Shown: positions 1,380 through 64,000 of the stretch, piece after piece
How the letters are laid out: the number at the start of each line of letters is the position of its first letter
How positions within the stretch are numbered: the stretch's first letter is position 1
Assembly (NCBI GenBank): GCA_051294905.1
Contig: CM119372.1
Span: 28,956,001-29,020,000 of the forward strand
Direction of reading: 5' to 3'
Length of the DNA stretch: 64,000 nucleotides
From: Botryllus schlosseri
Lineage: Eukaryota
Translations under genes and position numbers: made by a program
Notes under the pieces: model-generated
What the model saw: only the letters and a program-made list of their open reading frames with translations
Told to the model about the DNA's origin: nothing
Databases searched by the model: none

Positions 1380-1396
1380 TCATTTTTCGGGATGAA
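1380..1396 (-). CDS. Gene A terminal coding exon: (V)HPEK-stop
   Basis: Acceptor atttcag|ttcatcccgaa is identical in the paralogue ((V)HPEA-stop at 54887-54903). Phase 1 fits the Ig exon, and the total CDS (1011 nt) is divisible by 3. Confidence 0.8.
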
Positions 1397-3540: not shown

Positions 3541-3828
3541 CTCTTATGTTGACAAAAGTCGCATAAGCTCTTGACTGGCCAATAATGTCCTTGTTAGCGG
3601 TGCATCTATACTTTGCAGAGTCGTCCTGGGTGGCGCTTTTGATAATCAAAGTTGCCTTTCCAGGTTCAATGTTTTGAAGAGGATCCATCCAAATATTGTC
3701 GGTGGGTGCGCCTTCCTGCTTTTGCCATTTGACAGTCGAAACCACAGATGAAGTACATTCTATTTTTATCGTATCGCCAACCATGTAATCCTCATCTTGG
3801 CTTGATGGTTCCAGAGCGAGAGGGAAAA
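3541..3828 (-). CDS. Gene A exon 7: immunoglobulin domain (I/C2-set-like)
   Basis: 288-nt phase 1-1 exon containing VGDTIKIEC...KWQK...ATLIIKSATQDDSAKYRC, i.e. the canonical Ig Cys, Trp and D-x-A/G-x-Y-x-C. Acceptor cacgcag, donor G|GTAGGC. Confidence 0.95.
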
Positions 3829-8753: not shown

Positions 8754-8845
8754 CATCTTCACAGACGTAACTAGTCAATCCTTCGCATTTGTCGGCGTTT
8801 AAACAGTTGTGCGTTCCATCTACCCAATAGCCAACTTTGGAATTC
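8754..8845 (-). CDS. Gene A exon 6: C-terminal part of compact CTLD-like domain 2
   Basis: Acceptor tttcag, donor G|GTAGGA: NSKVGYWVDGTHNCLNADKCEGLTSYVCED. A near-identical 92-nt exon lies at 61513-61604. Confidence 0.92.
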
Positions 8846-10185: not shown

Positions 10186-10360
10186 GGATTCCTGCTGTTC
10201 TCGATTTTCGTGATTACTTCGTCCGAGTCCACCACAGCAAGTCTTAACCCGACCTTCTTGCAACTGCTTCGCGCCAACTCTTGAGTGCCTTTACCGCCGT
10301 CAAAATTTCTGATTGAGAAGAGCCTGTTATCGATCGAACTTCTGCTAGCTGTAGATGGTT
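10186..10360 (-). CDS. Gene A exon 5: N-terminal part of compact CTLD-like domain 2
   Basis: Acceptor catttag, donor CC|GTAAGC: (E)PSTASRSSIDNRLFSIRNFDGGKGTQELARSSCKKVGLRLAVVDSDEVITKIENSRN(P). Has A-x3-C-x3-G-x-RLA-x-V-x-S; conserved in the paralogue. Confidence 0.9.
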
Positions 10361-11543: not shown

Positions 11544-11662
11544 CTTGGAAGCAAATGTAAGGCAGACGTTCCCCGCAATCGATATCATTCCACCAGTTCA
11601 TTGGCCACTCTAAGGATCCGCAATCCTCGTTTCTACGATGGTTGTCCGGCTGACCCGGTCCC
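11544..11662 (-). CDS. Gene A exon 4: C-terminal part of C-type lectin domain 1 (QPD and WND motifs)
   Basis: Acceptor ttgcag, donor G|GTAAAA: GPGQPDNHRRNEDCGSLEWPMNWWNDIDCGERLPYICFQ. The first G completes the TGG split from exon 3. Confidence 0.95.
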
Positions 11663-17006: not shown

Positions 17007-17260
17007 AAAAATCACATTATTAACCTCGTTTATTAAACGTCTCTATGAAATGCCGATCGTATCTCTAATATTTAGGCCTATTAGCTCATTTGCAATTCAG
17101 CAATTAGTATTATCAGTGCTTCCAATTAGCGAGAATCGACTCGACACGTCGACAGCGGCACGCGATCTCCCGCATGTACGTTGTTATTCAGTCGCATGTG
17201 AAATGGTGTGATTGGAATCACCTGATTCGTTGTAATAAAAGTTCATAGGTATGAGGATAT

Positions 17261-22813: not shown

Positions 22814-22984
<171 letters not shown>

Positions 22985-30360: not shown

Positions 30361-30465
30361 CAATTTTGATGAACCACTGGGATGTCGTCATTCCATTTCC
30401 ACCAGCCTTCATGTGAGTAATCAGTCATGCCGATGAAGGGGCTCCAATACCCATAATCACCGGTA
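30361..30465 (-). CDS. Gene A exon 3: middle of C-type lectin domain 1
   Basis: Acceptor ttttcag, donor TG|GTGAGC, phase 2-2: TGDYGYWSPFIGMTDYSHEGWWKWNDDIPVVHQN(W), matching the WIGL-x-D...EG-x-W-x-W...NW motif. Confidence 0.92.
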
Positions 30466-32638: not shown

Positions 32639-33685
32639 GTGATCACCAATATTTCGACTCCCGACTTCGACACGTGACTCTTGTTTCCATGCCCTGATTG
32701 ACAGGGCACACAGACATATATTCCAAATCTATAGAGGTAAAAGCGTGAGGAAAAGTCGTCACCACAATATGCAAGGTCTTATTGCGGAACAAAATTTGGC
32801 CCCGAATATGAAGGAAGTTACCGAAGTTTAAATATTTAAAATATATAAATAGAACCTACGCTTACTACCTTCACTTGAGCATCTACAAGCGATCTTAGCC
32901 AATGACTATTCATAACCGTCATAGAAAGTGTGACAGCTATCTGGTGATGCTAGTCATACTACAAAATATATTTGACGTCCTCTTCATAATGCATTTCTGA
33001 TAGATTTGTATTCACGAAACACATTATCCCTCGAATGATCCCTGTTGCATGACCGAATGCTTTCAAGTCATGTGAACGAGCTTCTATAAAACACAAACCG
33101 TTTATTGCCAACAAGTTGCCGGTAAAGCTGTCATGATATGACAGCTGTTCTTAAAGTATGGGTCGCGAATTCTATAATTTTGGGTCGCGACCACACCAGA
33201 GATATCATTTGATGCACGCAATATTTTCTGAATCTCCTGCAAAAATATTCTTCACGTTTCGCGCGATCTTCTGTGGGTGCTTTGATCGTTTTCTAGCCTA
33301 ACGTGTTTGGTGCCATAGCCAATAACTGCACAAAAGGTAATTGTTTGGTCATTATGGCTTGATCATAAAAATATGCCCACCTCTGTATCATACAAGTCAC
33401 TTTGTTGTCATTGTAAGGTTTGTCTGACGATGGGTTTGTCTGGAAACCTCTAAAATTGTCGCTACTCAATTCCTGATATGTAGGCCTACCAGGTCAAACT
33501 AAAATAATTATACGCGATTTCGTGGTAACAAATATAAGACATGACTGGTGATACTAAGCACCTACGGTGAGAAGCGCCAATTGAAAGCTATCACTGTTTG
33601 CTTGGAGGAGTGAGAGAGACACTTCAAAAGAATATGTCGTCCTCGTGAATTGCATATCAGTGTAGGAAGGGAAGTATAAACTTAC

Positions 33686-33848
33686 TAGTCGGCAGCACCT
33701 AACATCAGGTCAGCAATTTCATTGTCAATATGATAGCTCGTGATGTAAACCAAATTCTTCCAGCCCTTGTCCTTGCAGCTCTGTTCTCCATACCCGTAGG
33801 AAAGATAACTACCCCAGTATAATCCATATAGATTACCAGTTGTAGCAC
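33686..33848 (-). CDS. Gene A exon 2: N-terminal part of C-type lectin domain 1
   Basis: Acceptor tctctag, donor TA|GTAAGT, 163 nt open: ATTGNLYGLYWGSYLSYGYGEQSCKDKGWKNLVYITSYHIDNEIADLMLGAAD. Contains the C-x3-G-x3-L-x2-I-x-S CTLD pattern. Confidence 0.88.
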
Positions 33849-35446
33849 CTAGAGACCAGTAGGTGTAATCATCCGCTGGAATGTTAATGCAGCATTACCT
33901 TGCGTCGCGTTCAGAATTATTAATTTCCTAATTTCCCAGCGAATCGAAATCGGGGAGCAAATATATCTCGATACATATGTATAGCGCAATAAACGTGAAT
34001 CTGGAACGCGCTGCATCAAACCTTTTTCAACTGAGTACCCCTTACGAATTATTTGCATGTATATGACATACCCCTTAGAAATAATGATGTGTATAGTGTG
34101 CGCAATTGAAAGACAAGTACTCTTTCTCGCATCATTCCACTGCGATAGATGAGCTGGACGCTACTTCAGGAGTAAATCTGTTTTTGAAGTGGAGGCGAAG
34201 CGAAAAAGACTCCCCTCACATTTGTCGACACAGTTGGAGCTCCATAAACTATAGCCTGCTCAGTGCTCATCGCAGGCTACATGAGCAATACACTGAAGAA
34301 TGCAATAGCGCTAATCATGTATCCTTCATCAAAAGCAAATGAAACTGGTTCTCATAAGAATTTATTCGAGATCTACAGTAGGCTAGGCTGCGTAGTTACT
34401 CTCATCAGAGTGGCAGTAAAGAAACAGAAATTCACTACGGATGATGAACATGGGGCGAGTAACGTTAGACGGCAATGTAAACATATGCTGTATTGAACCT
34501 TAATAAACGCTGCATTTGTTGGTCTTAATCTTAAGTCTCGATTGTCGCATATTTCCTAAAGTCGCTGTTCTTGAAAATAATCCAGTGCCTGAAAAAGGAC
34601 GTCGCACATGTACGTCCAGTTTGAGAGCCCCTGTTATAGTGTATAGTAGAAGTGGGATGGATTAGGAATTGAAAAAGAAAATTAGAAAAAAATAAATTTA
34701 ACCGTGTTAGATTAGCGTCTAATTGGGATATGCCATTCTGGCTGAGCCGGATTACGATTTTACATGCCCTAACTCTTTTGTTGAGTTTTCGTGGGAGTTT
34801 TCAGGAAAGTCGACTGTATACCAAATGCATATTAAACATCTAGCATTTAGGTAATAAATTGATAATTATATTTAGAAATGGCAAATTTCATTTTGTTAGT
34901 TTCTAGACATATATGTAGAAGTGGTAAAAAAAAATTCTGCTTGATGTGAATTTAGTAATTTTGCTAAACTGAATTTTTATTTCGATTACGATATGGAATT
35001 GTGAATACATAGAATTTACCTCCTTTCCAACTGAATAGGTTTACAGATATGGACTTCGATTTGGCATGATGAAATATCTATTCATTATTTTGATTTTGAA
35101 TTTGAAGCTAGCATGTACACGGAATTTAATTTTAACATAATAAATCAGCCCTTAGAGTGCAGACACACGCATTGATGACCCAGTGCAGCATGTTGCCGCG
35201 AGATAAAGATATCACGATGCTAAAATATCTATTAGAGAGTGGAGAGTATAGCTTCTGGTTATGTGTGGTACCGGGTCTGTTGTCCTTGCTGTTGATAGTT
35301 TTAATGGTGAGCCACCATCTAACGTTGATTTTATATCAGACCGATGTAATCTTTTGAAGATTTCCTAGCTGCCGACTTATAGGGTGGTGCAATTTATTAC
35401 AAAGCTACAGTACGTATGATGAATGGATCGCGATCAGCAGACCTAA

Positions 35447-37318
35447 CAGTGGCGGCTCGTGACAATATCGGGCGGTGGGGCAAGGGCTGCAAGCGACTTT
35501 TCATCAAGATGACGTCACAATGGCGTTTTCCAACGTAAACAAGTAACTTGGTGGTACGGTAACACGAACTTCCCGACAACAGTGATTTTAACGTATGTGT
35601 CGCGAGAGGTCTGCTGGTGAGCAGTGACTTGAAGTGTGGTAACTGCGTAAACGGCGTACGGAACAAAGATTCGACAAGGTTCATGTTCGCACTATACCTG
35701 ACTAATTATCTGCAGAAATGGAAATGACTATAACTCGAGAGATTGCGTAATCCTAACTGGAAAGGTCAACGAGTTTGGACACATACGCAATTGTTATCTC
35801 ATAGATTGGGCCTGCCATATTGAATACAAAACATCATTCTGAAGAACTACGGATAGCAGCCTCGGAAATTCGGTCCCGGTACAGCATAGGAGATTTTGGC
35901 CTTGAGGCTGGTGACTGTCGCACGACACATACGGCCTACGAATAAATACGTGGATGAAAGCCTTAAACTTGGTACACTGTTACATGACATTATCGAGAAG
36001 TGGCCTCATGGCCCTTTTCGGTATGGTACACCGTCAAAATTAATGCGAACAGACCAACACCGAATTTTGCGTAAAATTTACTGAGGAATAGGCTGATCAA
36101 GTGATCAGCTGTTAGCCGCCATCGAAAACGAAATAACTATCGCGCTTGACAGGGGGGTTGTAAGCAAATGGCTTGAAGGCCACAATTTCACGGTGAAATT
36201 GACATTGGAGAATATAATATCAAAGTAAATATTTGAATGCAAACTGAGAATGATATCATCATCTCAGTTAACGTTACCGCAGATACACCGGCTTTTGCGT
36301 GAAATCCGCAATGTGTTGTAGGCTAAAGTGTCAGATCGAAGCACATCTTTACCACACTCGACCTTGATAACGAAATTACTGCCCTAATCATTGAGTGTCA
36401 ACCTTGAGACTTGGCACAGCGTTCGATACTAAAATCAAGACATACCGTGCAAAAGCTTATGACGGATCTAGGTAAGGAGCATCGTTAAAATCAATAGAGA
36501 CCAATACCGGCTTTGCGTATAATCTGTTAGCGATAAATGACTAGTCAGCTCTCACTCGAATTAGGAAACCAAATTACCACTAACACAGTTCAGTGACAAA
36601 CTTAAAACTTGGTACAGCGTTCGATACTAACTTTAAGACTTACCGTGCCAAATGTCATAACCGATCTCGGTATTGAACATCGTCTAAACCAATGGATACC
36701 AATACCGGCTTTTGAGTAAAATCTGTTTGCGATACATGACGGATCAGCACACACTCAACTTCGGAAACGGAATTACTACCCTAAACTTTAAGTAAAAACC
36801 CTGAAACTTGGGGCAGTGTTCAATACCACCATCACGACATGACATAACAAGTTTCAAGAGTTTTCATGGTGTGAAACCCCATTAAAATCGACCTATACCA
36901 GCAAAGGTCGACTAAACGCAGATGACGGTAACAGAGTTCAGCTATAGATACGATTGTTACATCACACCTTAAGGGCACAGAGCTATCGTGCCCCGGTTGC
37001 TCGGTAATTTTATGAATAGGAGAGAGTAAATCACCGTTTCTTTATTGTGAGAATAGACAGTGAAAGCTTGCTATGAGCGCTACCGGGGCAAGCCCCGGCT
37101 AGGCATTCGCAAAGCGAAAACACAGAAGAGAATTCGATTTTCGCAGAGACTTCGCTATATATGGGCATTTACAAGCGAAAGGACAAGAAGTATACGATAT
37201 TCGCTGTGATTTCGGTTTATATAGATAGGTGTGCGTCTATAAATGGTGAAGAATTGTTATTGAACAGAATTTTAGGTGGGGCAATGCCCCAGTTGCCCTA
37301 TAGGACGAGCCGCCACTG
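35447..37318 (+). mobile_element. Tip100-like element, copy 3
   Basis: Same TIRs; TSD agacctaa. Confidence 0.95.
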
Positions 37319-37419
37319 AGACCTAATATAGTTTAAGAAAATTCAAGGGAAATCTGTCAGACTCAAACCCGCGACCAATGAGTGCTGCAGCGCTGGAACT
37401 GTACTTGTCACCACGATTC

Positions 37420-37677: not shown

Positions 37678-37729
37678 CTTGGGCGAAGTTGACACCGAAG
37701 AGTATAGCTGCAATTCGTATCACTATCAT
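37678..37729 (-). CDS. Gene A coding exon 1: start codon and signal peptide
   Basis: MIVIRIAAILFGVNFAQ(G): basic residue, hydrophobic core and small-residue cleavage region. Donor G|GTATGT, phase 1, matches the start of exon 2. Confidence 0.85.
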
Positions 37730-43718: not shown

Positions 43719-46149
43719 ATATTATCGCTTCACCTCATTTCCCATGGCAATACTCCACTTCTGCTTGTCATCTGAAACATTTGATAGAGATGCCTATCTC
43801 TAACAATACCAAAGTCTGAAGAACTGTCTGGGTACGTTCGCTCATTATTCGAAATGGATAACTTCGTTTTCGGAAAAAGTGAAACCTTTGAATCCGAACA
43901 ATGGATTCCTGTTGCAGGTGGATGAACTGGGGCCTATATCAAAACATAAAAATAGTATTTAAGGACTTCGGCTAAGTTGAAAACTGTATATGACGACCGA
44001 CCCTTCGAGAAGCTTGTGGTGCATCCCACTCCTCGCCGTCATACCAAGGCAAAAAGCACTGTAGTGTTCATGTTAAATATTTGATGTGGTGTCTCATGAA
44101 AATATGTGCCAGCGCCTATCTTGGAAATTTTCGTTGTTTGGTGCCCCCCATATATTTTAATGACTGTACTAAAGACGATGGGGTAGAGGTCCAAGTCCGG
44201 TCGATTTTGTCGGGTTTTTGCCGGGATTTTGTCGAACCTTACTATTGGAACCATTTCGCGCTTGAATAGCGCCCTATGGCCACTCGGACCAATTAACAAT
44301 CCAATAATTGTATGCACTATTTTCGGGATCAAATCAAGGTTCATCAAACTATTGTTGGGTAAGGGTTCATATACCTATCGGGTGTAAGCCCAATATACAC
44401 ACCTCGGGTGACGATGTGTTTTGTATCTCTCGAAAACAAGGATATTTAGTTAATCGTTTGGTCAGAAAGCTTCAAATAATGCCTACTGTACAAATGGCTC
44501 TCACCCCTAAAAGTGGTGTGGAACAACTCTTCCAAATTTTGAGGCGCAGTGTGCTGCAATATATAATACCTATTAGTTTAAAACATTTTGTCGGGAGAAT
44601 CCCTATCTAGTGTGATCGAACTGGGAAATTTTGCTATCTAAATTTACGCGCATGATGCTTAAAACACATTTTTGATGAAATACAGTAACCACTGCATTCG
44701 CGGAAATACTAAACACATCGTCGGTACTTGCTATATTTCGTGCAAAGCTCGACGAACATTTTTGATAATTGATGAATATTGTTTGGAATGAATGAATGAA
44801 TTTTGCATCGGGATGTCAAGGATATATAGAGCTGTGAAGCTTAGTATCCCCATGACCACTACTACATAATCTGCTCTGCTACGTCATTTTTCTTCGGCGC
44901 CCCCATAACGTCTCATAGCCTCCCATATCGCCCCTTTAGTGTTTCTGCCCCTTCCAATTCCATATCGCCGCAGGGGGTTGGAGCGCTCCCGACATGGTTA
45001 AGAACCACTGATCAAAAGCAAGAGTTCCTAATAGGAGTATATTCTGCTGCACCTGCCATTCTTTGAAGTTGCTCGCCCAAGAAGAGCAAGCAACCTTTTC
45101 AATAAATAATTATTACAAATAATGTGCCGCGTCTTAGATGTTCTATATTGCTTGAGAAAGAAGCCTTTCCGGTTGGGAACATTACTGTTCAATCCTCTCA
45201 CCATGGTACTCTGATCGAATACGTCCTACTCACTGGACGACAAATATAACGATAAAAAATGATGTAAAATACTATAAGCATAGATCTGTTGCAAAATACC
45301 ATTAGAAGTCGAGCACCAATACTAAACTTATACAACATCAGCAACCACAACAGCGCGCGGTTGACGTTCGCGCTTTGTGTATGAACCTCACTAATTTAGA
45401 GGTTCTTTGCATTTCAACTTCGGACCACTCTCCGCATGGTGCTGGTAAGGTTGCGTGGAAAGAAATTCAGCACTAATCAAACATGCACCTTGTCAATCTC
45501 ACAACTATTTTGGCCGAAAGTTTGCTCGATATATTCAACTTACTTTTGTGAATATTTTGTTACTCTCCGCCGTGAGCTTTGCCCGCAATCACAAAAAGAA
45601 CGAAATACACTATTTGTACCAAATTATGCTTAATCAACCACTATATTATTTACATCAACGAAATTCATATATATAATGTATCTTTGTGGAACGTAAAAAA
45701 TATATCAGGCGTGCGAGAGCTACCTTGATTTGCTATGCTTATTGTATCATGAAAACCAAATCCGTCCGATTTGGGTGCTGGCAACTGTTAACTTGTTTTT
45801 GAGATAATATCTGGCGAAAGTATAGAAACCGGTGTTTCACTCTGATCAATATCGACGTAGTAGTAGTCTGACTATGTTTTAAGAATATATCTGTCCGGCC
45901 CTGCTGAGTCATCGTCGAAATTGTCAGCAAAGCGAAGAAAAATATTGATTTTATGGAATTATTAGAGAATTTGATTGTTCCAGTTGATACATTTGGTGGT
46001 GATTAAAAAGGCAGCATATATGTCAGCATTATGGCATAATTTAGCCTGAGTCGTCGCTAAGAACCTTGTACATTAGTATATTAATTTACGGAAATGTAGA
46101 GTTGGAATTAGCAACATGATGATACTTGACGTCAAAGGTCCGTGTTCAC

Positions 46150-48571
46150 TAGGGTTGTTCAGAATTGATCGACTTTCAAAATGTTGTGGTTTTCAGTCCG
46201 ATTCCCATGCCTTATACCATAAAAACATATTCTAGGTACTTTTTTTCGTAATTCATCCCTTGCATCCGTGTGCACATTGAGCTGGAAGAATATCGGCTAA
46301 AAATAGGGGATTCCCCTAAAATTTGAGTGTCGCTATTCGGACTAGGCTAGTAAAACGTCATATATAAGCTGGTTTTATGTAGCTATTGCGGTTGGAGTGC
46401 TACATAACCTCACTATAGAATGTATTGTCAGTTCAGGACACCATTTTCATGTCCCACACTGCCTTAGAACTCCTCAAAACTGCCTTAAGACTGATAGTCA
46501 TTTTGTTGGATCACCTATTCTACACTCCTCAACCCTATCCGAGATTGTTCATCAATTGCCGGGATCACCACGTGCAAGAATACAACTGTAAATGTATCAT
46601 TCACTCACAGCCACATTATAAACATCACATTGTTCATAGGAAAAGAAACAAAAAGGCAAAGAAACAGACCAACTTGGCAAATACTACTTAAATCAGGTCC
46701 GGATGAAATAGTTGCTTTAGAGAAATCGGCATATCTGTTCCCGTTATCTTCCACGGCTTGTAAGAGGCTCGGTATTCAATTTCACCAAACGCTCTGCTGT
46801 GCCGTTAACTATTTCAACGCTACTCACAAATTCTTGAGCAGTCACGAAATGCGAATCAGTATGCCATTCCGAAACTGGAAGACTAAACCAATCATGTTCG
46901 ACATGTATAGCATTGGATAGAAACCGTGACTTCGGTTCAATTAAAGCAACCATACTCATTGACTCAGAGACAGAGTCAGAGATTAGACTCAGAGGTATAG
47001 CCTACCTCTGCGAAATTGTTCAAGGATTGGCATTTGCAGCAATTTAGCAGCCATCGCTTCCTTCACTTTGTCAGGAATCTTTGGTTTAGCCGAGAACATT
47101 GTTGATACCACCGTTTCCTCGGTGAGATGCCAATGATGTTCTCGCATCTTTTTATATGCCACATCAGCAACTGTGAAATCGCACAATGAAAAGTCTGTCA
47201 TGCCATGAAGGAATTTGAGATCAATATACTGTGCGTCACATGCATTACCAGTTTTCAACCAAGCTGGGACATAAAACAGGGCAACTTTCTAATGAACTCT
47301 TCAGAATAGCCCATTTGCTCTCTCCACATGAACATTTTTGACAGTAGGCTACAGCACTTGACTCATCCATCCAGTGCTATTAGTAGCACCAGGCTTGCGA
47401 AAACGATTATCAATATATTGGGCAGCTACAATCGCCAAGGTGCCTGTTGCACATTCTCTGTAGTCATTTATTATCAAGACTTCTTTCTGCTTTCCATTAT
47501 ATGGCTTCATCAGTGGAATTATTTCTTGCTTAGCTTCATCATCTTTGATCGCCAACCAGCTGCATTCATCAAACTGAAGTGTTTTAAAGCTTCTTAATTG
47601 ATCAATATCTTTCCACTTCTTGGAAGGTATTAAAATCTGTGTTTTCAGGGCCTGTGGTCGCAGATCGAAATACACTTCACTTCCAGACCGCCCCGGATGA
47701 CTAGTTCATAAATATGATGGCGACAAGCAGAAGTAGAAAGTAGAAAACTTTCCTGTTTATCAATTCTTCAAGTAACAGAACCGCACCTTCATTTTTTCCA
47801 TTGTTTGAGGGTGTTGTGTCAAACACAAGAGCTCTGACATTATTTGTTAAATATTAAAGTTCCAGCAGTTCAAATGACAGATCAGCCTGTGCTTTTCCTG
47901 TAGCACTCTCCAGAGTTCGATTGCCAAGAAGTTTGCCTTTCTCAAATGCGTTGGAATACGCAGACTATGCCAGCACTGCCAAGGCCGCAAATTTCCCTCC
48001 GAAACGACTTCTAGTGAGCTTTGCATCCCAGTGCAATACAATGTGCCAAGTTGATCTGTTTCTTTGCCTTTTTGTTTCGTTTCCTTTGAACAATGTGATG
48101 TTTATAATGTGGCTGTGAGTGAATGATACATTTACAGTTGTATTCTTGCACGTGGTGATCCCGGCAATTGATGAACAATCTCGGGTAGGGTTGAGGAGTG
48201 TAGGATAGGTGATCCAACAAAATGACTATCAGTCTTAGGCAGTTTTGAGGAGTTCTAAGGCAGTGTGGGACATGAAAATGGTGTCCTGAACTGACAATAC
48301 TTTCTATAGTGAGGTTATGTAACACTCCAACCGCAATAGCTACATAAAACCAGCTTATATATGACGCTTTACTAGCCTAGTCTGAATAGCGACACTCAAA
48401 TTTTAGGGGAATCCCTATTTTTAGCCGATATTCTTCCAGCTCAATGTGCACACGGATGCAAGGGATGAATTACGAAAAAAAGTACCTAGAATATGTTTTT
48501 ATGGTATAAGGCATGGGAATCGGACTGAAAACCACGACATTTTGAAAGTCGATCAATTCTGAACAACCCTA
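46150..48571 (-). mobile_element. Decayed hAT-superfamily (probably hATm-like) transposon with ~530-bp TIRs
   Basis: Arms 46150-46679 and 48044-48571 are near-identical inverted copies; TSD gtgttcac; fragments NDYRE..FRKPGA...WM, YVPAW, HHWHLTEE and VNGTAERLVKL. Confidence 0.88.
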
Positions 48572-50042
48572 GTGTTCACGTTCGCGTTGATAGAACCTTT
48601 CAAAATGGTTCGCGTTCACATGAACCAGAATCTTTTAGCCGTACGCACTATCCCTATTCCCTAGTTCGTTCCTAAAAGATTTTGGCGCGAACCCTTTCAT
48701 TTTTGTGAGTCTTCAGGGACACACATGCAGACAGTTTACCAGTCCCAATATCAATTATGACATATATATTGATATTGTTTCGGCATTTAAGTAAACCCTT
48801 ATTCAAGATCATTCTAACAGTGAAATAGTTCATGACCCGATCAATATCATTCGAAGCTCATTGCCTGCCAGCTGATGCGTTCCCTCGAATTAGAATACAT
48901 ATATTTGTTATCATGTTACTGCGATATGTGATTAGACGCGACAATACGGTAGTACTTCAACACGCTTATGATACGCACATTGCGAATCTCCACATGTCGG
49001 ATTTCCGTATCAGTAGCAGAGAGCCCTCCACTGACCGCTGTGTCTACGGTAGTTTACTACTAGAACAAGGTATTGTAGACACGAATTCAGTGGATAAGAA
49101 AGGTTTTGTGCCGCAACTGAGAACATTACCGGCGCGATGAATGACGAGCGGTGTGGTGATCTATACGTATCTCACGACTTCAACGCTAGAAACTAACCCG
49201 GTTGTCATTCTAATCAGTAGGTGAACCGGACAAATGCCCTGCTCAACCGACTACAGATCTTAAAATTCCACATTCTACATTTGAAACACAAAATCATTAA
49301 AACTGAGCGGCTGTTTAAAGACGTCGCTAATATAATCGAGTTCGAATTGTTCTTTTTTATTTTTTGAAACGGTGGCTCGCAATATCCTTATTGGCACATT
49401 GGCATAATGGTCAAGCGATAATAGTGCATGTGACTTCTGCGCTTGTAACACTGGATTAAAGTTAGGTCTGGGTTAAGTTAAGGTTATAGTTGAATTTTGG
49501 GAGTTGGGATGATTTGGGGTTACTTTTAAGTTTATAAAGTTACATGCTCATGTGTCGCGTGCTCAAGCGTTGTTTATCATTGTCTCGCATGTTAATATGT
49601 AGGGGAACCTTCCGTACAAGATGGATTGCAAGTATTCCACTGAATGTCCATAAATCCAGAACAGAAACGAACTAATTATTTCACCATATAGTTCGAACAA
49701 AGAACAGCAGCGTATTGTGGTCAGATGTTGAAGAAGGTTGACAGTGCAAAAGTTCATCACCCGATTCATATCTTCCAAGGCTTTTCATCTGACAGCTGAT
49801 GCGTTCCTTCAAATTACAATGTTTATTTTTACCATATGGCACTGCGATACGTGTTTGGTACTTCAACGCATTTCCGATACGAACATTGCTAATCGGCATA
49901 TGTCAGACACCCGTGACAAGGCATGATAGGCGACTTAACTTATTTGCAGTGTTTGCGGTACTACAAGAACAAGGTATTGCAAACACGGAGCCAATTGATT
50001 GACCTTTTTGTACCACTGCTAACATATTACCTCACGAAGCTG

Positions 50043-50849: not shown

Positions 50850-51700
50850 TGTCAAATATTCTTGTAAGTTTGGCTTTGCATTCTAAAATACCCATTCTAA
50901 TCTGGAAGATTTCCGTAAAGATAAGTCCTCTGGACCAAGAAGGTGCCCAGTATATTTGTACCTTGCGTGGATTGGCATAGTTAGTAACAGGTGTGAAAAG
51001 CAAATTAAATCTTCCGTAAGTCATGGTTTTCCACAAGCGAAACACCATAACATAATCACTACGAAATCTTTACTACTCGCAACGCGTAAGCATGTGATAC
51101 CTGCAATTAATCGGAGTACCATAATTTACCAACATATGAGCAGATGCGACAGTCGGTATGTGGGTTGCACATTTCAGCGTCTGCGACAAGGAATCAGTCA
51201 ACATGTTCCACGTCAGATTAGAAAATCGCAAAGTTATTATATTTCTGCTTCGTCATCACAGTATCTAGTTAGTAGTTACCATGCGCGACTAAGATAAAAT
51301 AACAGCATGTAACTCTGCCATCGGTCAGCACCTCTTGAAACACCGCAAGTGCGCCAAACATTATAATAGCAATAAGTTTTTTATAGTTGCTCGTAGTAGT
51401 CCTCTTTTTCATTTAAAGGTCCCCGAATCTATCATTAGAACGATGCAAAGCAGATCCACTGCCGCCAAAAGGAACATTTCTATACCCTGGGAATATTTCA
51501 GTTGTGTCGTGTTGTCATTCGACTATAGCCGAATTTGTCTCTGTTGTAACGCGACCGTGCGTTTTCATCCAGAGTTTATAACTCAGTGTCTTTTTCATTA
51601 TTGCGTCATGACGACAATATTTTTTTATATTTCGAATTTTGTTAATCGCATTTACTGACGTTAGCTTCTGACGAGGATCACTCACAAAGCTTCGAGTGGA
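50850..51700 (+). mobile_element. Older Penelope-like 3' fragment (GIY-YIG), frameshifted
   Basis: ATRKHVIPA..STIIYQHMSRCDSRYVGCT.QRL...ISQHVP and SAIGQHLLKHRKCAKHY, collinear with 16360-16833; degenerate hammerhead at 51664-51697. Left boundary approximate. Confidence 0.85.
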
Positions 51701-53454: not shown

Positions 53455-54886
53455 TATCCTTTTTTTATTATAAACGTGATCCTTTGGTCGTACCAATCAT
53501 ATTCATTACACACTGACGTATAATTTTGACTGATGCTGCACCTCGAACTCGAACAGACCAGAAAACGTATCTAAATTAAAAGTCACCAGTCAATGCGTTA
53601 GGTTGTTAGCTGTTACCTGTTAGGCCTACTTTTGTTTCAAGACGTATTTTCTGGTTTGTCGGAGATCCAGTAGTAGTGAAAATAAAGCTTTGATGCAGGT
53701 TGAGCAGAAACTCTCCTCAAGTAGTTTTGAAAAGCACTCGTAATACGCTCTCATGGTTCGTCAACACCAGAAAGTTGACACATGCAGACAAGGCAGAGCT
53801 GGGTTTCTGTTGCAGCAAACCCCTTGCAGCAGATATATATTTTTAACAGCGTAAGGAATCGACCGCATTATCTGATGCAAATGATACCTTTGCTATATAG
53901 CAGTGGTTCTATACTTTTATTCATCCCAATGCCCCTCTCAGGAAATGCGATCGTATGACGGCCTCGCTCATATTACAAGGATCGTAGTTAATAAGATGAT
54001 GAGCGATAAGGAAAAGTTGTAACGGGTACTTATAGGCTAAATATATCTTTGCGCTATTAGTAATGTGAATGTGAAGATGGCGGATAGCATAATTCTAAGC
54101 GTTTTACAAAGATCTATTTACCATGATGAAAGTGTCGCATGGGCGAAGATAAGCGGCCTGAAATTGCGCACATGAACCATGCAACCGCTACATAAATATA
54201 ATGGCCACGATTGTCGTGAATATGTTCGTCACTCCATTTATATTTCGCGCGAAGCAAGACTACAAGGTTTGACTCATCCAGAAAATAGAACCTCGATTTC
54301 TCCGTCTTGGCCTCTGTCTTTTTGGTATTCGAAGTACATAACACTGCTAATTACCAAGCCGTAAATAGCGAAATTTAGGTAAGTCACAAGATATGATGAC
54401 GTAAAAGTAGAAGCGGTGGAAAATCAGATTTACTTGAGTAAGTAATGCAAGTAGAGGAAAACTACTTGAGTACATGGAAATAGCAAAAGTACTTCGTTAC
54501 TGACCACATCTGCTCGTTACTTGACCACTAATCTAAGTCAACCCATAATCCAACCTATTCCAAACACCTAAATTAAAATGAACTAAAACAAAACCAAATC
54601 TCAAACAGTTTAGGATGACTCGCAATCACCAATTTACTATTCCACACGTTTACCGTTTGATCAGAAGGAAGTTATCCTGCCAAATTTACATCGTTACTCA
54701 TTTCACAAAAATATTACACACAAATCAGTAAACGAGCTCCAAGAGTATTGATTTATTAACAGAGAAGCATTTATTGACCAAATGTGCCACATATTAAAGT
54801 ATCATATATTCAATTAGAATTTACGTGGCAGTTTCCGCTGTAGAGTGTGATATATAATTAAATTTATTAACTCGCTTTTGCTTCTT

Positions 54887-54903
54887 TCATGCTTCGGGAT
54901 GAA
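54887..54903 (-). CDS. Gene B terminal coding exon: (V)HPEA-stop
   Basis: Homologous to 1380-1396; AATAAA at 54863-54868 and 54752-54757. Confidence 0.8.
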
Positions 54904-55644
54904 CTGAAATAGATTGAAAAGGCGATTGTTTATCAAGAACACGAAAATAAACTTTTGTCAATTGTCTATCAATAGAGACACTGGCACCTTCAGTTGAAAA
55001 AAATCGAAACGAATTTGAGTCTTTGAGCCAATGATCATCAAGTTTTTTTGTCGGATGTCGTTTCTGCTGAAACACTGTCGAGTGCCCATGTACTCTCGCT
55101 TTGGAGTGGCACTGGTTTTTCTCGCAGCCAGATTGGATTCAGAGGTGACAGGCATCGGGAAATGATCCCGTGTCACATGCGATGCCAGCAGTGCAATCAT
55201 TAAAGTGGATGTTGGCATGCTATGGCGGAATTGCTTGCATTTTTCTGGGAACAGTTCCAACAAAGATGAATGATATAATATTCTAATATTTAGTTGTAAC
55301 AAAGAAATCTCTGCTTGTATCGATCGCATGCTTATTCGTTACGTAGGTCAGTTCTTTGATCTTGGTAACCGGTATTCTTGGTGACACAATGTGCTATGTT
55401 ACTAATCTGAACAAGAAATTCTAACTTTGCATTGTTTCCATATCGTTTCCATATATTCGCCACACGAGAATGGTGCCCTATATTCAATTCAAGCATTCAA
55501 AAATCAAATTGGACCCATGATATTAGCTATTAGACGGGAATATGAGATATATGGCACCCGGAATTGTCTCGTTTTCCCAAATAAGTTATTACATATAAAA
55601 AATTATCAACGACTTATATTCGCCAAATATACCTACAGATTTAC

Positions 55645-55932
55645 CTGTTATGTTAACAAAGGTCACATAACGCCTGGACAAGCCTTCAATATCATTGCTA
55701 GCGAAGCATTTGTACTTTGCAGAGTCTTCCAGGGTGGCGCTTTTGATGATCAATGTTGCCTTTCCTGGTTCAATCTTTTGAAGTGGGTCATTCCAAATAT
55801 TGTCCGTGGGTACACCGTTTTGTCTCTGCCATCTGACGTTGACAGTCGAAATTCCATACCCGGTACATTCGATTTCAATCGTATCACCAACCTTGTATTC
55901 CTCTCGACTCTCAGACAAAGCGAGAGGGAAAA
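55645..55932 (-). CDS. Gene B Ig-domain exon
   Basis: 288-nt phase 1-1 exon: VGDTIEIEC...RWQR...ATLIIKSATLEDSAKYKC. Confidence 0.94.
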
Positions 55933-57761
55933 CTGCATGGGATTGAGAACAATATTTGCAGAAAGAAACCATCGATACCGGCAGTACCCACACCGGGGTT
56001 AGTAACACAGAACTTATAATTTTTCAAAATAGCACCTGATATTGATCAGTTGTCTTTTACTTGAAGTATACTCAGATGGATTATATTTGAATGGAATAGA
56101 CTTGCTTACCTTCTAAGGCATCATACTTCTTCAAAATACTTTAAAATGGTCTACTATACTTTCAAATTCACCTAATTGGTTATATTTACAACTCACTTCC
56201 ACTTCAAAGTCGACAGTTTTCAAGCCGAACTACTTATTTTTCCTAATTTTTCAGATTTTGTAAAGTACAGTACAGTTTTATACCGATTTTTTTGCGGCAT
56301 GGACGGCGCCACAGACCCTTCACCCAATTTACTACTTCAGTATTTTGACTTCATATGCATTCAGTCCGCCAAAATACCTGTGAAGCTACGTCATTGACAC
56401 AAAATATTGCATCCTCTTCTTACAATTTGCATCTTGCATATACGGAAACTATCACTGCGATTGCCAATCAAATGTGTACAGAGTCAGGCTTCAATCCATT
56501 CATTTAAGGTCCATACTCGAGTAATTATGAAACCCTTCATTATATTACAACTCGAAGAAGTTTTTTGACATCTCTTGCAATCATACGTTCACTTGTATTT
56601 CAGTGGAAATATAGATTAATGCTACTACTTACAGAAACACGACTTTTCCTTTACCAGCACCAATTATCAATATTCATGCAACATCCCAATACAATTTTAG
56701 ATTTTGACCTGGATTTGGGAATGATATGAAAAAAACTTAAATTTGTTATTAGCATTAGGTTCAACGATCAACTGCGCAGCAGGATTCGGAAGTGAAAATA
56801 TTGAATCAGCTCGTGTCTAGTGACATGTAGGGTTGCATTTAAAACAAGTGGTTGTTTAAAACACTTTGTTTAAAACATTTTTAAAAAAGTGTTTTGAACA
56901 AAGGCTTATTTAAAAAACAAATGTTTTTCAAGTTGTGTAAGTATGCCATAATTGTGTAAATACTTTCCAAAATACGTCTTATATGAGCTTACGGACGTTT
57001 ATCACCCGATAGGCGGAGATGTGGTACCGATCAGGGCTTTGGAGCCGGAGCCCGGAGCCGGAGCTCCGGAGCCGTGCATTTTTACCGGAGCTGGAGCCGG
57101 AGCCGGAGCTCTGCATAAAATTCAGCCGGATCCGGAGCCGGAGCTGGAGCAAGTTATTTGAGGGGTAGCTCCGGCTCCGACGTATTTCATAAGATGCTAT
57201 TATATATGCAACAACCATATCTGCTGAGTTCAGATAATTCAACAGCAGGCCTTCGCGAAATTAAAAATCTTTTCCTCTTTGGCGCTACCTTTTCCGACTA
57301 ACCATGTTCCTAAGGATTTAACAGCAGAGCAGTCATATGTTCAATTTTCAATTTTCATGCATGAGTGCCGAACCTCGGTATGCTAAATATGCCTGTGAAT
57401 ATTGTGGGTATTCGGCATACCCGCAATTTCATCATCAGCACAACCTTGTTGGCCAATTGTACGGTTCGAAAAAAATGATCATAATGTGTTATGCGAAATG
57501 GGAGAGAGGATAAAAGCCTGATGTCGTTGCACATGTAGATATGACGAGTCCGAGCCGAAAAATTCCATCTTATCGTTCCTATGAATCGGTTGAGCAAATA
57601 CTCGTTCTTTCGTGATCGTTCTTTAATCGGGCCGCGAAATTGGACGGTGTTATTGTCTATGCAATTATGCATGCGTATTGGAATTCATTACTGCGTATGA
57701 TCGTCATTCACTCCAGTGAGGATTTTCGAGCGTAAATAGGGGATGGCAGAAGAGTAGCCCA

Positions 57762-57861
57762 NNNNNNNNNNNNNNNNNNNNNNNNNNNNNNNNNNNNNNN
57801 NNNNNNNNNNNNNNNNNNNNNNNNNNNNNNNNNNNNNNNNNNNNNNNNNNNNNNNNNNNNN
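57762..57861. other. Assembly gap (100 N)
   Basis: Run of N; the flanking sequence is duplicated on both sides. Confidence 1.
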
Positions 57862-59551
57862 TATAATTGTGTGTAAATACTTTCCAAAATACGTCTTATA
57901 TGTGAGCTTACGGACGTTTATCACCCGATAGGCGGAGATGTATGGTACCGGATCAGGGCTTTGGAGCCGAGAGCCCGGACGCCGAGAGCTCCGGGAGCCG
58001 TTGCATTTTTACCGGAGCTGGAAGCCGTGGAGCCGAGAGCTCTGCATAAAAATTCAGCCGGATCCGGAGGCCGAGAGCTGTGAGCAAGTTATTTTGAGGG
58101 GTAGCTCCTCGGCTCCGACGTATTTCATAGAGATGCTATTATATATATGCACAACAACCAGTATCTTCACTGCTGGAGTTCAGATAATCTCTAACAGCAG
58201 CCTTCGCGAAATATAAAATCTTTATCCTCTTTGGGCGCTACCTTTTCCGACTAACCATGTTCCTAAGGGATTTATAACAGCAGAGCAGTTCATATGTTCA
58301 ATTTTACAATTTTTCAATGCATGAGTGCCGAAACCTCGGTATGCTAAATATGCCTGTGAATATTGTGAGGTAGTTTCGGCTGCATACCCGCAATTTCATC
58401 ATCAGCACAACCTTGTTTGGCCAATTGTGTACGGTTCGAAAAAAATGATCATAATTGTTGTTATGGCGAAATGGGGAGAGAGGGATAAAAAGCCTGATGT
58501 CGTTGCACATGTAGAATATGACGAGGTCCCGAGCCGAAAAAATTCCATCTTTATCGTTCCCTATGAAATCGGTTGAGCAAAATACTTCGTTCTTCTTTCG
58601 TGATCGTTTCTTTAATCGGGCCGCGCGAGAATTGGTGACGGTCGGTGTTATTTGTCTATGCAATTTATGCATGCGTATTGGAATTCATTACTGCGTATGA
58701 TCGTCATTCACTCCAGTGAGGATTTTTCTGAGCGTAAATATAGGTGGATGGCAGAAGAGTAGCCCAAAACGCCGTTGAGCACTCAGCAAAACAATTGTCG
58801 CGTGTGCGAAGCTACTCAATGTGATATCAGGACCCCACGGTATTTTATGTTGGAGACAAATTACTGATTTGATACGCGATTTCCAATTTTGTAATCATCT
58901 GCTTCGTAAATTCATTCTGGATGTCTGCTTGATACTCCAGTATTCCCGGATTATCGCGCACTGTGTGACTTGTTACGTAAATGTGCATTGTGCAATGTGC
59001 ATACTGCATGGGTTTAAATTCGTTATGGGCATTGCGCAATATGCATGACGCAGTGTTTTAATTCGGTTCGTTTAAGCGGGAAAATATTATATTCCGATAA
59101 ACTTGATCGACAGCGGATGGACTGGTTAACGAGTGCATCAATACCGAACGTCAAACCGTGGCCATATTGAACAATATTGGTACAAATCGAATTTCTATTG
59201 ATGAGGTTCGTGATATCTGCCCTCATATTGCTCTTACAGCAGTTACAGTTGAATAATAATCGCACATTTAACGATTGAATTGAGCTGCATAGCTTAATGT
59301 TAACAAGTGCAGTGCCAGTGTTAAAACGGCCGCGTCAAAATTTTAATGCTGTACACAGCAATGGCATCGAGTAAAGTGCGTTCTAGTGCAGCTATGTTGT
59401 TATCGACAATTGACAAGTATTCATAATGACGTCACAAGCCGGCACGGCGGCACCTATGTCTTCGTTGCTGCATCCGATGTTACTGGCGGCTGACAGACTC
59501 TTGATTACTTTAGATAACTAACCTACGGGTAAATTAGTAATCTATATAGAC

Positions 59552-60060
59552 CAGGGGGTCCAACCTTTTCGGCTAAAGGGCCACATGAAATTTACGGACG
59601 AGTGCGCTGCCCACTAGCCGCGCCAGGCGCGTAAAATTTTCAAAGTATATATTATTATTAATTGGGTATATTGCGGGTCGACTGTATACCGCTTGCTGGG
59701 CTCAGTTTGCAAGGACAGGACTATTCGACCTCTGGACATATCGATATCGAAGATTTCCGCTAATATAAGACAGTCATTTTTAACCTACATTTCATAGTCG
59801 ACGATCTTTCTGCGAGCGCAAACGCGAAGACTTTCTCTCGCAATTGCGAATATAGTTAGACTCAATCTGCTAAATCAGGCGTTTTTTCATTTTCAGGAGG
59901 GGGTAGGCTACAAAGAAAGAAATCGTCTGACAATTATACACGCGAAGCGTGAAGAAAAATTGTACTACTCTTATAGTTTATTGTAATGTAACACGGTTTT
60001 CTAAAACTGTGACTGGACCGGGGCGCATATGGCCGGGAGGCCGCGGGTTGCCCACCCCTG
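59552..60060. mobile_element. Charlie/Buster-type MITE nested in 57032-60232
   Basis: caggggg...cccctg; flanks atatagac/aaacagac. Confidence 0.65.
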
Positions 60061-61512
60061 AAACAGACAGACACCTTCGATAGTTTTCAGAGCCGGAGCC
60101 GGAGCTGGAGCCGGAGCAGTGGTAATAATGCGGGTCCGGAGCTGGAGCTGGAGCCGGAGCCATTGTATGATAGAAGAAAGCTCCGGAGCCGGAGCTGGAG
60201 CAATGCAAATTTACGACTGCTCCAAAGCCCTGGTACCGATGGATCAAAAATTGCAAACTGATCTCTGTCCCTCAAATCTTCAGCCGAGAATGGCAGATCC
60301 TTTGCTGCTGCCACAACACTTTGGCCCAAGCTCTATCTATCGCGGACATTGACATGAATATCCGCCTTTTTAAAAAAAGTTTATGAACGTTCAAAATTTG
60401 TTGCTCGAGCGTATCATCGGTCCCCACCCGGTGGGTCCAAAGGCACACGACCACGAGACCTATGAGACATACGCTCAAAAACTCAAATTTCTCATCTTGT
60501 TTCGTTGTATATTATAATCTAAGCTGCAGCAAGCCAATGAAGAATGTTTCTTCGCTACCTTCAATAATAAAATAGATTATATCAAGTCAAATGTTGGCGT
60601 AAAATCACGTTTCGGTTTACGCCCAAACTTACAAAATTATTGGCACAGACATATTACCCGTAAATCGACATTTTGACCTACAAATACCTCGTTATGGCTA
60701 TAAAACTCCACAGGTAACTATGATTTGCAGCTTCTATATATGTAGGCGCGATTCTGTTGTTAAGTGATTAGTTGGTCCAATTATTTTACTTGATTTGGCT
60801 ATGGTTACCAATTACCATAGGCCCTCCAACCTATAAATATTGTAATTGAATTGAAAATACTCTACTCGAGGATGGTATGGGATTAAAAATATAGCCTGAT
60901 ACCAGCCCTACACTTCACATTAAAAATTATGGCTGGTTTGTTAGTGTGGAAAGTCATATAGAAAAATGTACACGTCGATCCAAATTTATTTTACACCCCC
61001 CAAAACATAAATCATATGCCACAGACCCCATGACGCACGCAGGTCTAAGTTTTTTGCATGTGAGGAAAGATTCTGCCAGCATGCAATTGTAGACAAATTC
61101 GCGTTCTGTAATCATGGGATTATCACAGAGAATTTTTCAAGTATTTTTAGTCCCACTGTCTCATCGGTAACACATCTCGCCTCCCACGTATGGCTGGAAC
61201 CCTCAAAATAGTCGGTTAAGCAGCTATAGTAAGCAGATATTTCGTCAATGAAGCTATAATTGCCCTAGATTTTCAATTGTCAATGTCAATCTACCATGAC
61301 GTCACAATTGAATATTCGTGACGTCATGACTTGAAAGACATAATGAAAAACTTGTTTTAAACAGGTCCTTGTTTTAATTATGTTTGTTTTAAATTGATTT
61401 TTGTTTTAAATGCAACCCTAGTGACAAGGCTGGCGGTTGATATTGGAAATAGAGCATTAGCATACTGGTCGAGCCAGCACGAGCAAACGTTTGTGAAGTA
61501 ATCATCTCCTAC

Positions 61513-61604
61513 CATCTTCGCACACGAAACTCGTCAATCCTTCGCAGTTGTCGATGTTTAAACAGTTGAGCGTGCCATCAACCCAATAGCCAACTTTGGA
61601 ATTC
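61513..61604 (-). CDS. Gene B exon 6 equivalent
   Basis: NSKVGYWVDGTLNCLNIDNCEGLTSFVCED; acceptor ctctag, donor G|GTAGGA. Confidence 0.92.
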
Positions 61605-61860
61605 CTAGAGGTAAATGAAAAGTCAGTCGTAATCACATAACTCATCTGATATGCGTACGTATCGGCATCAGCATGGTCGTTGTGGCGCGAAGTGTACCTT
61701 CACTTCGCAAGAATAGATATGCGACGTTTCACCACTATGCCCGTTCTATACCTTGATATAGTCCAAGCTAGCCGTGTCATTGTAGAAATTTCACCCCGTT
61801 TTCGAATTTTAATTTGGACTATACACCGATCTCTGTTTACGCCAGCTTTCCTTTACTCAC

Positions 61861-62034
61861 CAATTCGTGCTTTCTTTTTTTTCGCAATTACGTCATCAGA
61901 GTCCACCACAGCAAGTCTCAATCCGTCCTTTGCGCATCTGCTTCGTGCCAACTCTCGTGAGCCTTTCTCGCCATCGAAGTTTTTTATTGAGAAGAGCCTG
62001 TTATTTATCGCGCTTCTGGTAGGATCAGAGGGTT
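61861..62034 (-). CDS. Gene B exon 5 equivalent, with an apparent 1-nt frameshift near its 3' end
   Basis: (E)PSDPTRSAINNRLFSIKNFDGEKGSRELARSRCAKDGLRLAVVDSDDVIAK...; 174 nt versus 175 nt in gene A; T8 run at 61875-61882. Confidence 0.85.
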
Positions 62035-62497
62035 CTAAAGGTGAAAATGGGTAACATTTGAAGCAATCAATTTCCATATCGAGTAAATCAGATTCTCACG
62101 TCTGGTTACGTTTATTTTTGAATTATAACGGCTACTGTGAAAGCACATCCGTTACGGCTGTCAGTTCTATATTACACCCTTCCACGTACTATTCAAAAAT
62201 TGGAACTAGGTTCAGTCAGTTCCGTATAACCTACCTTTGTCGTGAATGAGCCGAGGTCGAAGAACTCACCCTTTCCGTCACAAATTACTAAGCCTTTTAC
62301 GTATCAATTTTCGATGGCAAGAGATACAACTTATGAAACTCACGTACACGTTTACATATTATTCAATGAGTTTTGATTTTGGCTGCTTCCGCCTCTACTG
62401 TTCGATATCTCAAGCTATGGTTTTCGTTGTAGAAAGTATAGATTATTTACAGCTTCATTGCCAGCAAATCGATTCATCTCGGGTGAATAGAACTTAC

Positions 62498-62613
62498 CTA
62501 CAAAGCAAATGAATGGGAGAATGCGCCCGCAATCGATGTCATTCCAACTGTTTTGTGGCCACTCTAAGGCGGCACAATCCTCCTTCCTATGATCATCCGG
62601 CTGACCCGGTCCC
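62498..62613 (-). CDS. Gene B (paralogue) exon 4 equivalent: CTLD1 C-terminal part
   Basis: GPGQPDDHRKEDCAALEWPQNSWNDIDCGRILPFICFV; acceptor ttgcag, donor G|GTAAGT. Upstream exons were not found in the window. Confidence 0.93.
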
Positions 62614-64000
62614 CTGCAAAAAATATGACATCGCAAACATATGTTTGTTGATCTAGTCCAGTGGTTCTCAACCTTTTTCACCTCGCGGCACCCTTTGGAA
62701 ATGAAAAATAGTTCGCGGCACACCATCACAGGAGTTCTGAACTTTTTCGGCTTACAGCAACTATAAACTAACAGAATACTAATTAGCACCAAATAGTAAC
62801 GCTGACTAATGTGACCTCCTCTGCAGTCAATCCAACAATGCCTCTGCACTTCCTTTCTTTTAAAATAAACTTCTCCATTTCAATATTTCTATAAATAAAC
62901 TTTTGTACGTATAGCGTCCTGAATATAGCTTACTAAGCCGTGATAGAAAGTCGTCGTCTTCCTCGGGCCAGAATATCGTTCCTTCGTGATTACAACAAAT
63001 AGTACGTATTCAGACCTAAGTAAAAGTGGTCATTTTGATGTACGGCTGCACAGAAACTATAGATAGCCTACTATTTCCTAAGATTTGTTTGACCATAAAT
63101 CTGCCCATTGCCGCATTGGGTCGAAGAGGTCAAGCACGATCGCCGCTAGCGAATACGGAGGCGTAGAGGTGTAAGCCATACCAGGCTATACAATGCATTT
63201 CCACGCAAATCATGTAGCACAAGGGCCGCCAATCTTTCGTATGCAGCGTGACAAAATATCAAAAATTATAAAATATTACCAACTGGCGTGCCAACCATTT
63301 TTAAATTTGTCATATTTAGCGTTTCAAGCAAGGAATCACACCAACCCCCCATCTGTAGCTGGCAACGCCATCGGTTACGTCAGTGATTCTAGCAGTATTG
63401 GTCGCGGAGGGTATAAATCTTGGTCGCTACTAAACTAGTCCTACCGACCAATGTACGCAATGTGTGCAGACTGTGCACCATTTAAATTTAGGCGCGTAAT
63501 GATCCATCTTATGTGGTTGCCTTGATCGTTTCCAAGTGTACTGTGTTCGGTACCATAGCCAATAACTGACAGGTCCATCAAAGATTTTATGAGGAGATGG
63601 CCTGATGATAAAAATATGCCAAACCCTGCAAATTGTTTTGGCAACGCACACAGCGCATGGAGTCGCATGTTTCTGAACGTTAGTCTCATATCGTGAAAAT
63701 GCCCTGGGCCAAAATGCTGGTTCCTATAAAATATTCGCAATATGCATATGCAATATGCATGGTGCACATGCACATTCCTAGACTAAAGATTCCGAACGAT
63801 TTCATACGATATTTGGTTGCCGTATATATAGTTACCCAAAATGAAGACATCAGGTCACGGTAAAACGCGCGGAGCGCGAAAAACTATGTCTAGGATAACC
63901 AAAATCTGCCCCCAAAGACTCTGTATTATGTTGATTTATCAAATAATTTTAGCTTTTTCCGTTTTTACAACTTATGTGACATGTTTTGCAACAAACATGG

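Follow-up and report, generated by a model that had tools for sequence, protein, structure and literature searches.

The window analysed here, a 64,000-nt stretch of the Botryllus schlosseri genome, contains two genes on its minus strand, A and B, the latter running out of the window. Their products combine a C-type lectin domain with a single immunoglobulin (Ig) domain. With fair confidence, we regard A and B as old tandem duplicates of a gene of the BSCLT type, named after a lectin of the same species, and as members of a six-copy cluster. Their products are likely to be secreted, opsonin-like lectins, and the loops of their Ig domains are likely to be drifting under relaxed constraint. An earlier note on this DNA had proposed that these loops diversify like those of antibodies, which our analyses do not support.

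Structure and duplication of the lectin-Ig genes

Gene A (37729-1380) reads through eight exons and codes for 345 residues, in the order signal peptide, C-type lectin domain (exons 2-4), a middle domain of 90 residues (exons 5-6), one Ig domain (exon 7) and a five-residue tail. The predicted signal peptide, hydrophobic at the N-terminus only, is encoded by exon 1 (37678..37729). Exon 2 (33686..33875), with a second in-frame acceptor 27 nt downstream at 33848, codes for the N-terminal part of the lectin domain, exon 3 (30361..30465) for its middle, and exon 4 (11544..11662; Pfam Lectin_C, E=1.5e-05) harbours the QPD and WND motifs. Exons 5 (10186..10360, 175 nt) and 6 (8754..8845, 92 nt) encode the middle domain, exon 7 (3541..3828, 288 nt) the I-set Ig domain, and positions 1380..1396 the coding part of exon 8 with the stop codon.

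Exons 4-8 of gene B (62613-54887) repeat those of gene A (11662-1380) in the same orientation, as the earlier note had observed. Exon 4 (62498..62613) supplies the C-terminal portion of the C-type lectin domain. Its QPD motif lies at 62603 and its WND motif at 62546, and it scores above the Lectin_C cut-off (E=9e-06). The putative shortened second lectin-like domain is divided between exon 5 (61861..62034, 174 nt) and exon 6 (61513..61604, 92 nt), the latter having homologues in other subfamilies. Exon 7 (55645..55932, 288 nt) encodes the single I-set Ig domain (Pfam Ig_3 1.6e-11, I-set 5e-10, V-set below the cut-off). The coding part of exon 8 (54887..54903) specifies five residues and a stop, and the 3' flank resembles that of A down to ~54650. 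All exon edges of both genes are GT/AG.

The introns and 3' flanks beside the exons align at 69-75%, which bears out a duplication at the DNA level. An upstream block at 63223-63592 also matches 33153-33385 and is thus a repeat. The peptides quoted in the earlier note are present on the minus strand in both genes, and the equal length of the Ig exons indeed results from compensating two-residue indels, a deletion near the start and an insertion before the Trp in B. Of 327 aligned residues, 106 differ between the two products, and dS is 0.58; judging from these sequences, A and B are therefore old paralogues rather than haplotypes. Identities for exons 2 to 7 are 53, 56, 74, 73, 87 and 71%. Exons 2-3 are thus more diverged than the Ig exon, a feature overlooked before.

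All of A, B and the cluster copies C, D and F described below carry QPD and WND, and the four-cysteine pattern of C-type lectins is present; the B counterpart of exon 3 matches Lectin_C weakly (E=0.041). By an established rule for C-type lectins, the QPD triplet denotes galactose-type sugar specificity. The QPD, EDC and WND residues singled out in the earlier note are indeed retained, but they belong to the lectin and not to the Ig domain. The Ig domain is of the I-set type, with Pfam I-set above and V-set under the cut-off, and atlas I-set clusters agree. Its closest sequence matches in the PDB are Dscam, CEA, DCC, Robo and contactin, adhesion I-set domains among them. Foldseek searches with the Ig model ranked V domains at the top (TM 0.6-0.74) at nearly equal E-values and do not discriminate.

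In the middle domain, four cysteines follow the lectin order, and QPD and WND are absent. Atlas features match it to Lectin_C clusters at 0.89-0.90, its profile links to middle exons from other subfamilies score higher than 40 shuffles, and two of those exons match Lectin_C at E=0.045-0.05. The domain itself has no direct Pfam match, its profile comparison with the first lectin domain of the same protein is not significant, and exon 5 alone gives a poor fold model (pLDDT 52). A shortened C-type lectin fold is consistent with these features but not proven. A hydropathy scan of exons 1-7 found no hydrophobic stretch past residue 20 in A and D, so their products are likely soluble, with a predicted signal peptide and no membrane anchor. 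A comparison of the ~2.2 kb that follow the Ig exon in 34 genes gave no common coding segment; a more distant membrane exon is possible.

In the assembly, exon 5 of B has 174 nt versus 175 in A, D and F. The missing base lies at an A-run (61875-61882) and shifts the frame, and B as assembled ends at residue 225, upstream of the Ig domain. A contig of sequencing run X6 (1062 bases) joins exons 5, 6 and 7 of B with exon 5 one base longer and in frame. It also bridges a 100-N assembly gap in intron 6 (57762..57861); the earlier note had overlooked both this gap and the frameshift. Thus, at least one sample other than that of the assembly contains spliced B transcripts. In frame and with the downstream exon-2 acceptor, its product has 333 residues. 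A DNA contig of run X1, which may be the assembly's own sample, spans the exon 5 site ungapped. This contig weakens the idea of a homopolymer error behind the frameshift, as does the in-frame form, in which more than a single A is different; the assembled B is likely to be a null allele. Raw RNA reads of run X23 reach a depth of ~2.5 in the bin of the B Ig exon, with none in the adjoining bins, and no RNA run is listed on the record for gene B. None of the four runs picked for B yielded a gene A contig, which is uninformative on the expression of A.

The suggestion that the family is clustered and extends beyond the window is supported by genome searches, which revealed six copies in 480 kb in addition to a wider family. 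The close matches genome-wide are six Ig exons, six exons 2, five exons 4 and four exons 5, all at G000:C2:28.96-29.44 Mb, and the cluster forms its own long-branched clade (100/99). Copies A, D and F have complete, fully open frames, and exon ends are GT/AG in A, C, D and F. Copy C lacks exons 5-6, hence the middle domain, and is still in frame; changes in a conserved lectin motif are present in its exon 3, and its intron 3 contains a 6-kb inverted duplication at 98% identity (G000:C2:29078296-29092598). Fragment E comprises exons 2, 7 and 8 only, 98-99% like those of B, with a stop in the Ig exon. An orphan inverted exon 8 with its 3' flank, 85% like B (G000:C2:29321250-29321583), is by its sequence probably what is left of a seventh copy. 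From exon 2 on, the likeness of D and F is 98% across 30 kb, against 84-87% at exon 1 and upstream, a pattern that favours a recombinant duplicate over a duplicate created by the assembly. Of the silent sites compared between C and D, 5 of 68 have changed in the Ig exon and 20 of 86 in the lectin exons (p=0.008), and this greater closeness in the Ig exon suggests exchange between cluster copies.

The earlier note had named mis-joined haplotypes as an outcome that could refute its proposal. An unmerged overlap of 813 bases between contigs does flank the gap inside B (56948-58766), its second copy being full of small insertions, like uncorrected long-read sequence, and the D/F (98%) and B/E (98-99%) pairs are near enough to be haplotype duplicates. 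Nevertheless, the gap is internal to B and bridged by the spliced contig, the likeness of D and F drops to 84-87% over exon 1, intron 1 and the 5' flank, and A and B differ at 32% of residues, with intron flanks mostly at 63-69%. For A and B themselves the explanation is ruled out by their dS and by the position of the bridged gap, and we give it a negligible probability.

Variation in the Ig loops and the lectin domain

The earlier note located the differences between the two Ig domains in two segments, which a structural model indeed places at the BC and FG loop regions. Segment 1, running after the first Cys up to the Trp (55829..55864 in B), corresponds in the model to the BC loop and strand C, and segment 2 (55664..55705 in B) to the end of strand F, the FG loop and strand G. 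Their equivalence with CDR1 and CDR3 holds by position, but the domain is I-set and not V-set, so it is a positional analogy only. The description of the centre as nearly invariant was overstated, with 5 changes in 34 codons while silent sites have diverged at 7 of 21. The heavy difference ascribed to the segments was likewise overstated. They do differ more than the rest of the Ig domain (12/24 residues versus 15/69; Fisher p=0.010, uncorrected, if the segments are preset), but segment 2 keeps 7 of its 14 residues. When windows are chosen afterwards, 305 of 400 shuffles yield two equally divergent ones, and thus the enrichment vanishes once window choice is allowed for.

Selection was tested with in-house codon-model code, not codeml, and likelihood estimates of dN/dS were based on the four distinct sequences A, B, C and D, E and F being near-copies. 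Pairwise dN/dS between A and B amounts to 0.68 for the segments, 0.24 for the remainder of the Ig domain and 0.76 for lectin exons 2-3. By likelihood on the four sequences, the segments have 0.63 (grid interval 0.4-1.0) and the remainder of the Ig 0.26. For the Ig exon, site models fall short of significance (p=0.24-0.53) and detect no selected class. Segment 2 is base-for-base the same in C, D and F, even though C and D have different residues at 26% of exon 2-3 positions, and both segments are identical between D and F and between E and B. Comparison of public contigs points the same way. Run X1 has no differences in the B loops, the X6 contig has two in the 288-base Ig exon, one of them silent, and X6, X7 and X10, from three studies, share the Ig centre and have B's own letters where the loose ends are shown; few runs could be compared, and contigs hide rare alleles.

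Related Ig loci elsewhere in the genome, described below, show lower values still. In the C3-C5 subfamily (18 of 28 Ig matches, after dropping those with stops, short ones and one outlier), dN/dS is 0.18 and 0.24 in the segments versus 0.26 in the rest; in the C12 subfamily (11 exons) it is 0.14 and 0.34 versus 0.42. Neither has a class above 1. Thus, the Ig loops of related subfamilies are under purifying selection. Segment 1 of the cluster copies A-D lacks a G-x-P-x-P motif of the BC loop found in 12 related Ig exons, one of which misses the second proline. From what is known of I-set structure, loss of this motif is a plausible reason for the looser BC and FG loops of the cluster and probably explains them. 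Ig residues 42-56 are conserved within the cluster (3 of 15 vary) and variable outside, and the sites that vary among A, B and D do not overlap significantly with those that vary among the 12 related exons (p=0.12).

Is there positive selection at all, and in which domain? The model of the earlier note, in which the BC and FG loops form a ligand surface diversified by positive selection like antibody CDR1 and CDR3, could appeal to the uncorrected enrichment, to a loop dN/dS that exceeds those of the other subfamilies, and to two FG sites among the top sites of a whole-gene model. Against it stand a dN/dS below 1, the non-significant Ig site tests, the loss of the enrichment on correction, the FG segment common to C, D and F, the B loops kept in E and in the other runs as far as shown, and the I-set nature of the domain. 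We consider this model improbable. Loops drifting under relaxed constraint remain our preferred explanation, against which some results weigh. Loop dN/dS lies above that of the framework (likelihood gain of 8.9 units of 2dL) and is indistinguishable from 1 (p=0.10), and with four distinct sequences a few selected sites are possible. Furthermore, the whole gene analysed with shared branch lengths gives a selected class (p=0.001-0.005), and 17 of its 23 top sites fall within the lectin domain, the others being divided between the middle domain (4) and the Ig (2). This signal drops to p=0.14-0.18 with domain-specific branch lengths, and we rejected it as not robust.

These top sites raise the alternative that the family diversifies by positive selection in the lectin domain, around the calcium and sugar site and on helix 2. 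The 17 lectin sites include residues beside WND, the lectin domain alone gives p=0.038 in the M8a/M8 comparison, 16 exon-4 sequences of another subfamily give a marginal p=0.032, and the sugar triplet of the wider family occurs in ten proline-containing types, plus two exons without proline. However, besides the fragility of the whole-gene signal, M1a/M2a on the lectin domain gives p=0.17, the exon-4 set is deeply diverged, its analysis kept branch proportions fixed and ranked a boundary site first, and regional dN/dS is under 1 everywhere. We regard such selection as possible but rather doubtful.

The wider family and the genomic surroundings

We collected the wider family by genome searches with two distant Ig exons; the counts are lower bounds for loci that are not annotated end to end. 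At least 53 related Ig loci lie outside the cluster, on C2, C3, C4, C5, C6 and C12. A lectin exon occurs within 20 kb upstream on the same strand in 35 of the 53 and on the opposite strand in one; for 14 of the 18 loci without a lectin exon, only ~7.5 kb were examined. An exon-5-like segment is present in 26 of the 34 genes that have both exon 4 and the Ig exon. Among 31 exon-4 sequences outside C6, the sugar triplet is EPN in 15, QPD in four, NPN in two and NPD in two, with six types found once, EPS being among the types, and two sequences without proline; one EPN triplet mis-parsed in the automatic count was corrected by direct reading. As far as sequence comparison can tell, the family thus appears to vary mainly in the lectin part, predicted to set the choice of sugar, rather than in the Ig loops. 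Nine related Ig exons are clustered at G000:C6:19.5-20.0 Mb, four of them closely preceded, on the upstream side, by a strongly diverged lectin exon without the usual triplet.

The region also harbours mobile elements and repeats. In the window, a broken Penelope-like retroelement with reverse transcriptase and GIY-YIG pieces lies on the plus strand in intron 3 of gene A (15142-16830), and a further decayed piece near 50887-51655. At 46141-48580, 540-base inverted repeats (97%) surround transposase-like frames without a Pfam match, which likely represent a DNA transposon. A 2-kb element with internal repeats occurs in three copies, in both orientations (17258-18759, 24019-26006 and 35444-37319), and a long (CT)n run is found at ~22818-22981. 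Between copies C and D, long intronless frames lie at G000:C2:29148000-29181000. They include an inhibitor-of-apoptosis gene (three BIR and a RING domain), a leucine-rich-repeat frame, a reverse-transcriptase frame that carries a Tpt1/KptA RNA 2'-phosphotransferase domain, and frames of 853 and 1139 residues without a Pfam match, and are possibly a large inserted mobile element. Downstream of gene A, a tandem array of more than 45 kb is composed of units of ~0.9-1 kb at 95-99% identity (G000:C2:28856001-28902562).

Possible roles and comparison with known systems

The proteins most likely act as secreted bridges. In this scheme, the first lectin domain, with its QPD and WND motifs, would bind galactose-type sugars via calcium, the middle domain, devoid of these motifs, might be a spacer or a protein-binding module, and the Ig domain would bind a constant partner of the host, for instance the surface of blood cells. 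The cluster probably evolves by birth and death with exchange between copies, as suggested by the stop in E, the loss of exons 5-6 in C and the mosaic D/F pair, and the recognition variety of the family probably resides mainly in the lectin domain. The Ig end of the scheme is modelled on PcLec3 of crayfish, whose Ig domain gives blood-cell binding and whose full-length form promotes phagocytosis (PMC4944128). A further point against our reading is that its functional part is drawn by analogy from a crayfish protein with the domains in the opposite order.

A role in tunic or matrix adhesion or in development, rather than in immunity, would agree with the nearest solved relatives of the Ig domain, the adhesion I-set domains of Dscam, DCC, Robo and contactin. 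Nevertheless, the family is large and clustered and has pseudogenes and variable sugar motifs, features typical of recognition genes, and we judge a role outside immunity unlikely. Going further than the opsonin-like role that we favour, we tentatively envisage, at somewhat less than even confidence, a Botryllus repertoire of 40-60 secreted proteins of lectin, short-lectin and I-set Ig domains, encoded in clusters on five or six chromosomes. Their constant Ig end would bind a host effector and their variable lectin end would read different sugars, with null alleles and copy-number variation between colonies. Dozens of genes that share a hidden middle domain and vary in the sugar motif rather than in the Ig loops provide a model of innate recognition, open to testing, for those invertebrates that are the nearest to vertebrates. 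An attractive yet unsupported claim of antibody-like loop diversification is removed by the present analyses.

By architecture, A and B are of the BSCLT type, a likeness based on its description, and the original BSCLT may be a different member of the family. Marker sequences place the genome in Botryllus schlosseri or a very close relative: it contains an exon of cellulose synthase, and two of five published botryllin primers have exact matches 218 bases from each other; the remaining three are missing from the 3-kb locus, one of them from the whole genome too. The BSCLT protein of Pancer et al. 1997 reportedly has 333 residues, a length matched by the in-frame B product, and a non-polymorphic Ig domain. 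The literature has recorded this type of protein since 1997, as one cDNA, and the large family is apparently undescribed. We found no published description of the cluster or family, nor a paper on the QPD rule in ascidians; subscription journals and the supplements of genome papers, which may list the genes, lie outside the coverage. No close protein was found among the longer proteins of a 5.8-billion protein set searched with the A Ig exon, the Ig alignment and B exon 2, which is weak evidence. A profile search of cluster representatives brought up very large multi-Ig proteins and an unnamed single domain of 94 residues with 37% identity to B.

BSCLT has an N-terminal lectin domain and a C-terminal intermediate-type Ig domain and is soluble, like A and B of the same species; it is described as one cDNA, and these descriptions include no middle lectin-like domain, cluster or family (PMC4944128, PMC7916673). 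PcLec3, our working model for the mechanism, is likewise a secreted protein with a lectin and one Ig domain, but it is an arthropod protein of 252 residues with two domains only, in reverse order, a likeness without demonstrated homology (PMC4944128). The VCBPs of Ciona and amphioxus are also secreted protochordate Ig proteins with a carbohydrate-binding module and act as opsonins, but they have two N-terminal V-type domains and a chitin-binding domain, in contrast with the single C-terminal I-set domain of A and B (PMC5465252, PMC7916673). The fester family and FcoR, in Botryllus itself, are clustered Ig-superfamily genes subject to birth and death and copy-number variation; they code for membrane-bound products that combine Ig and Sushi domains with tyrosine motifs and have no lectin domain, and their polymorphism is mostly in the N-terminal Ig (PMC12582321). 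In comparison with diversified V-region receptors, A and B have no V-set domain, no loop dN/dS above 1 and no hypervariable loops between copies or, for B, between the few runs compared.

Lastly, the VIgL proteins of Biomphalaria (FREPs, CREPs and GREPs) are, like the A/B family, multigene products that join Ig and lectin domains, and they occur in plasma (PMC5433772). VIgL proteins and CREPs have N-terminal Ig and C-terminal lectin domains, the reverse of A and B, which are thus not of this type (PMC4944128, PMC5433772); the Ig domains of the A/B family show no sign of the sequence variability described for VIgL (PMC5433772). If the repertoire envisaged above exists, it would represent a chordate counterpart of the molluscan VIgL proteins, with domain roles opposite to those of antibodies.

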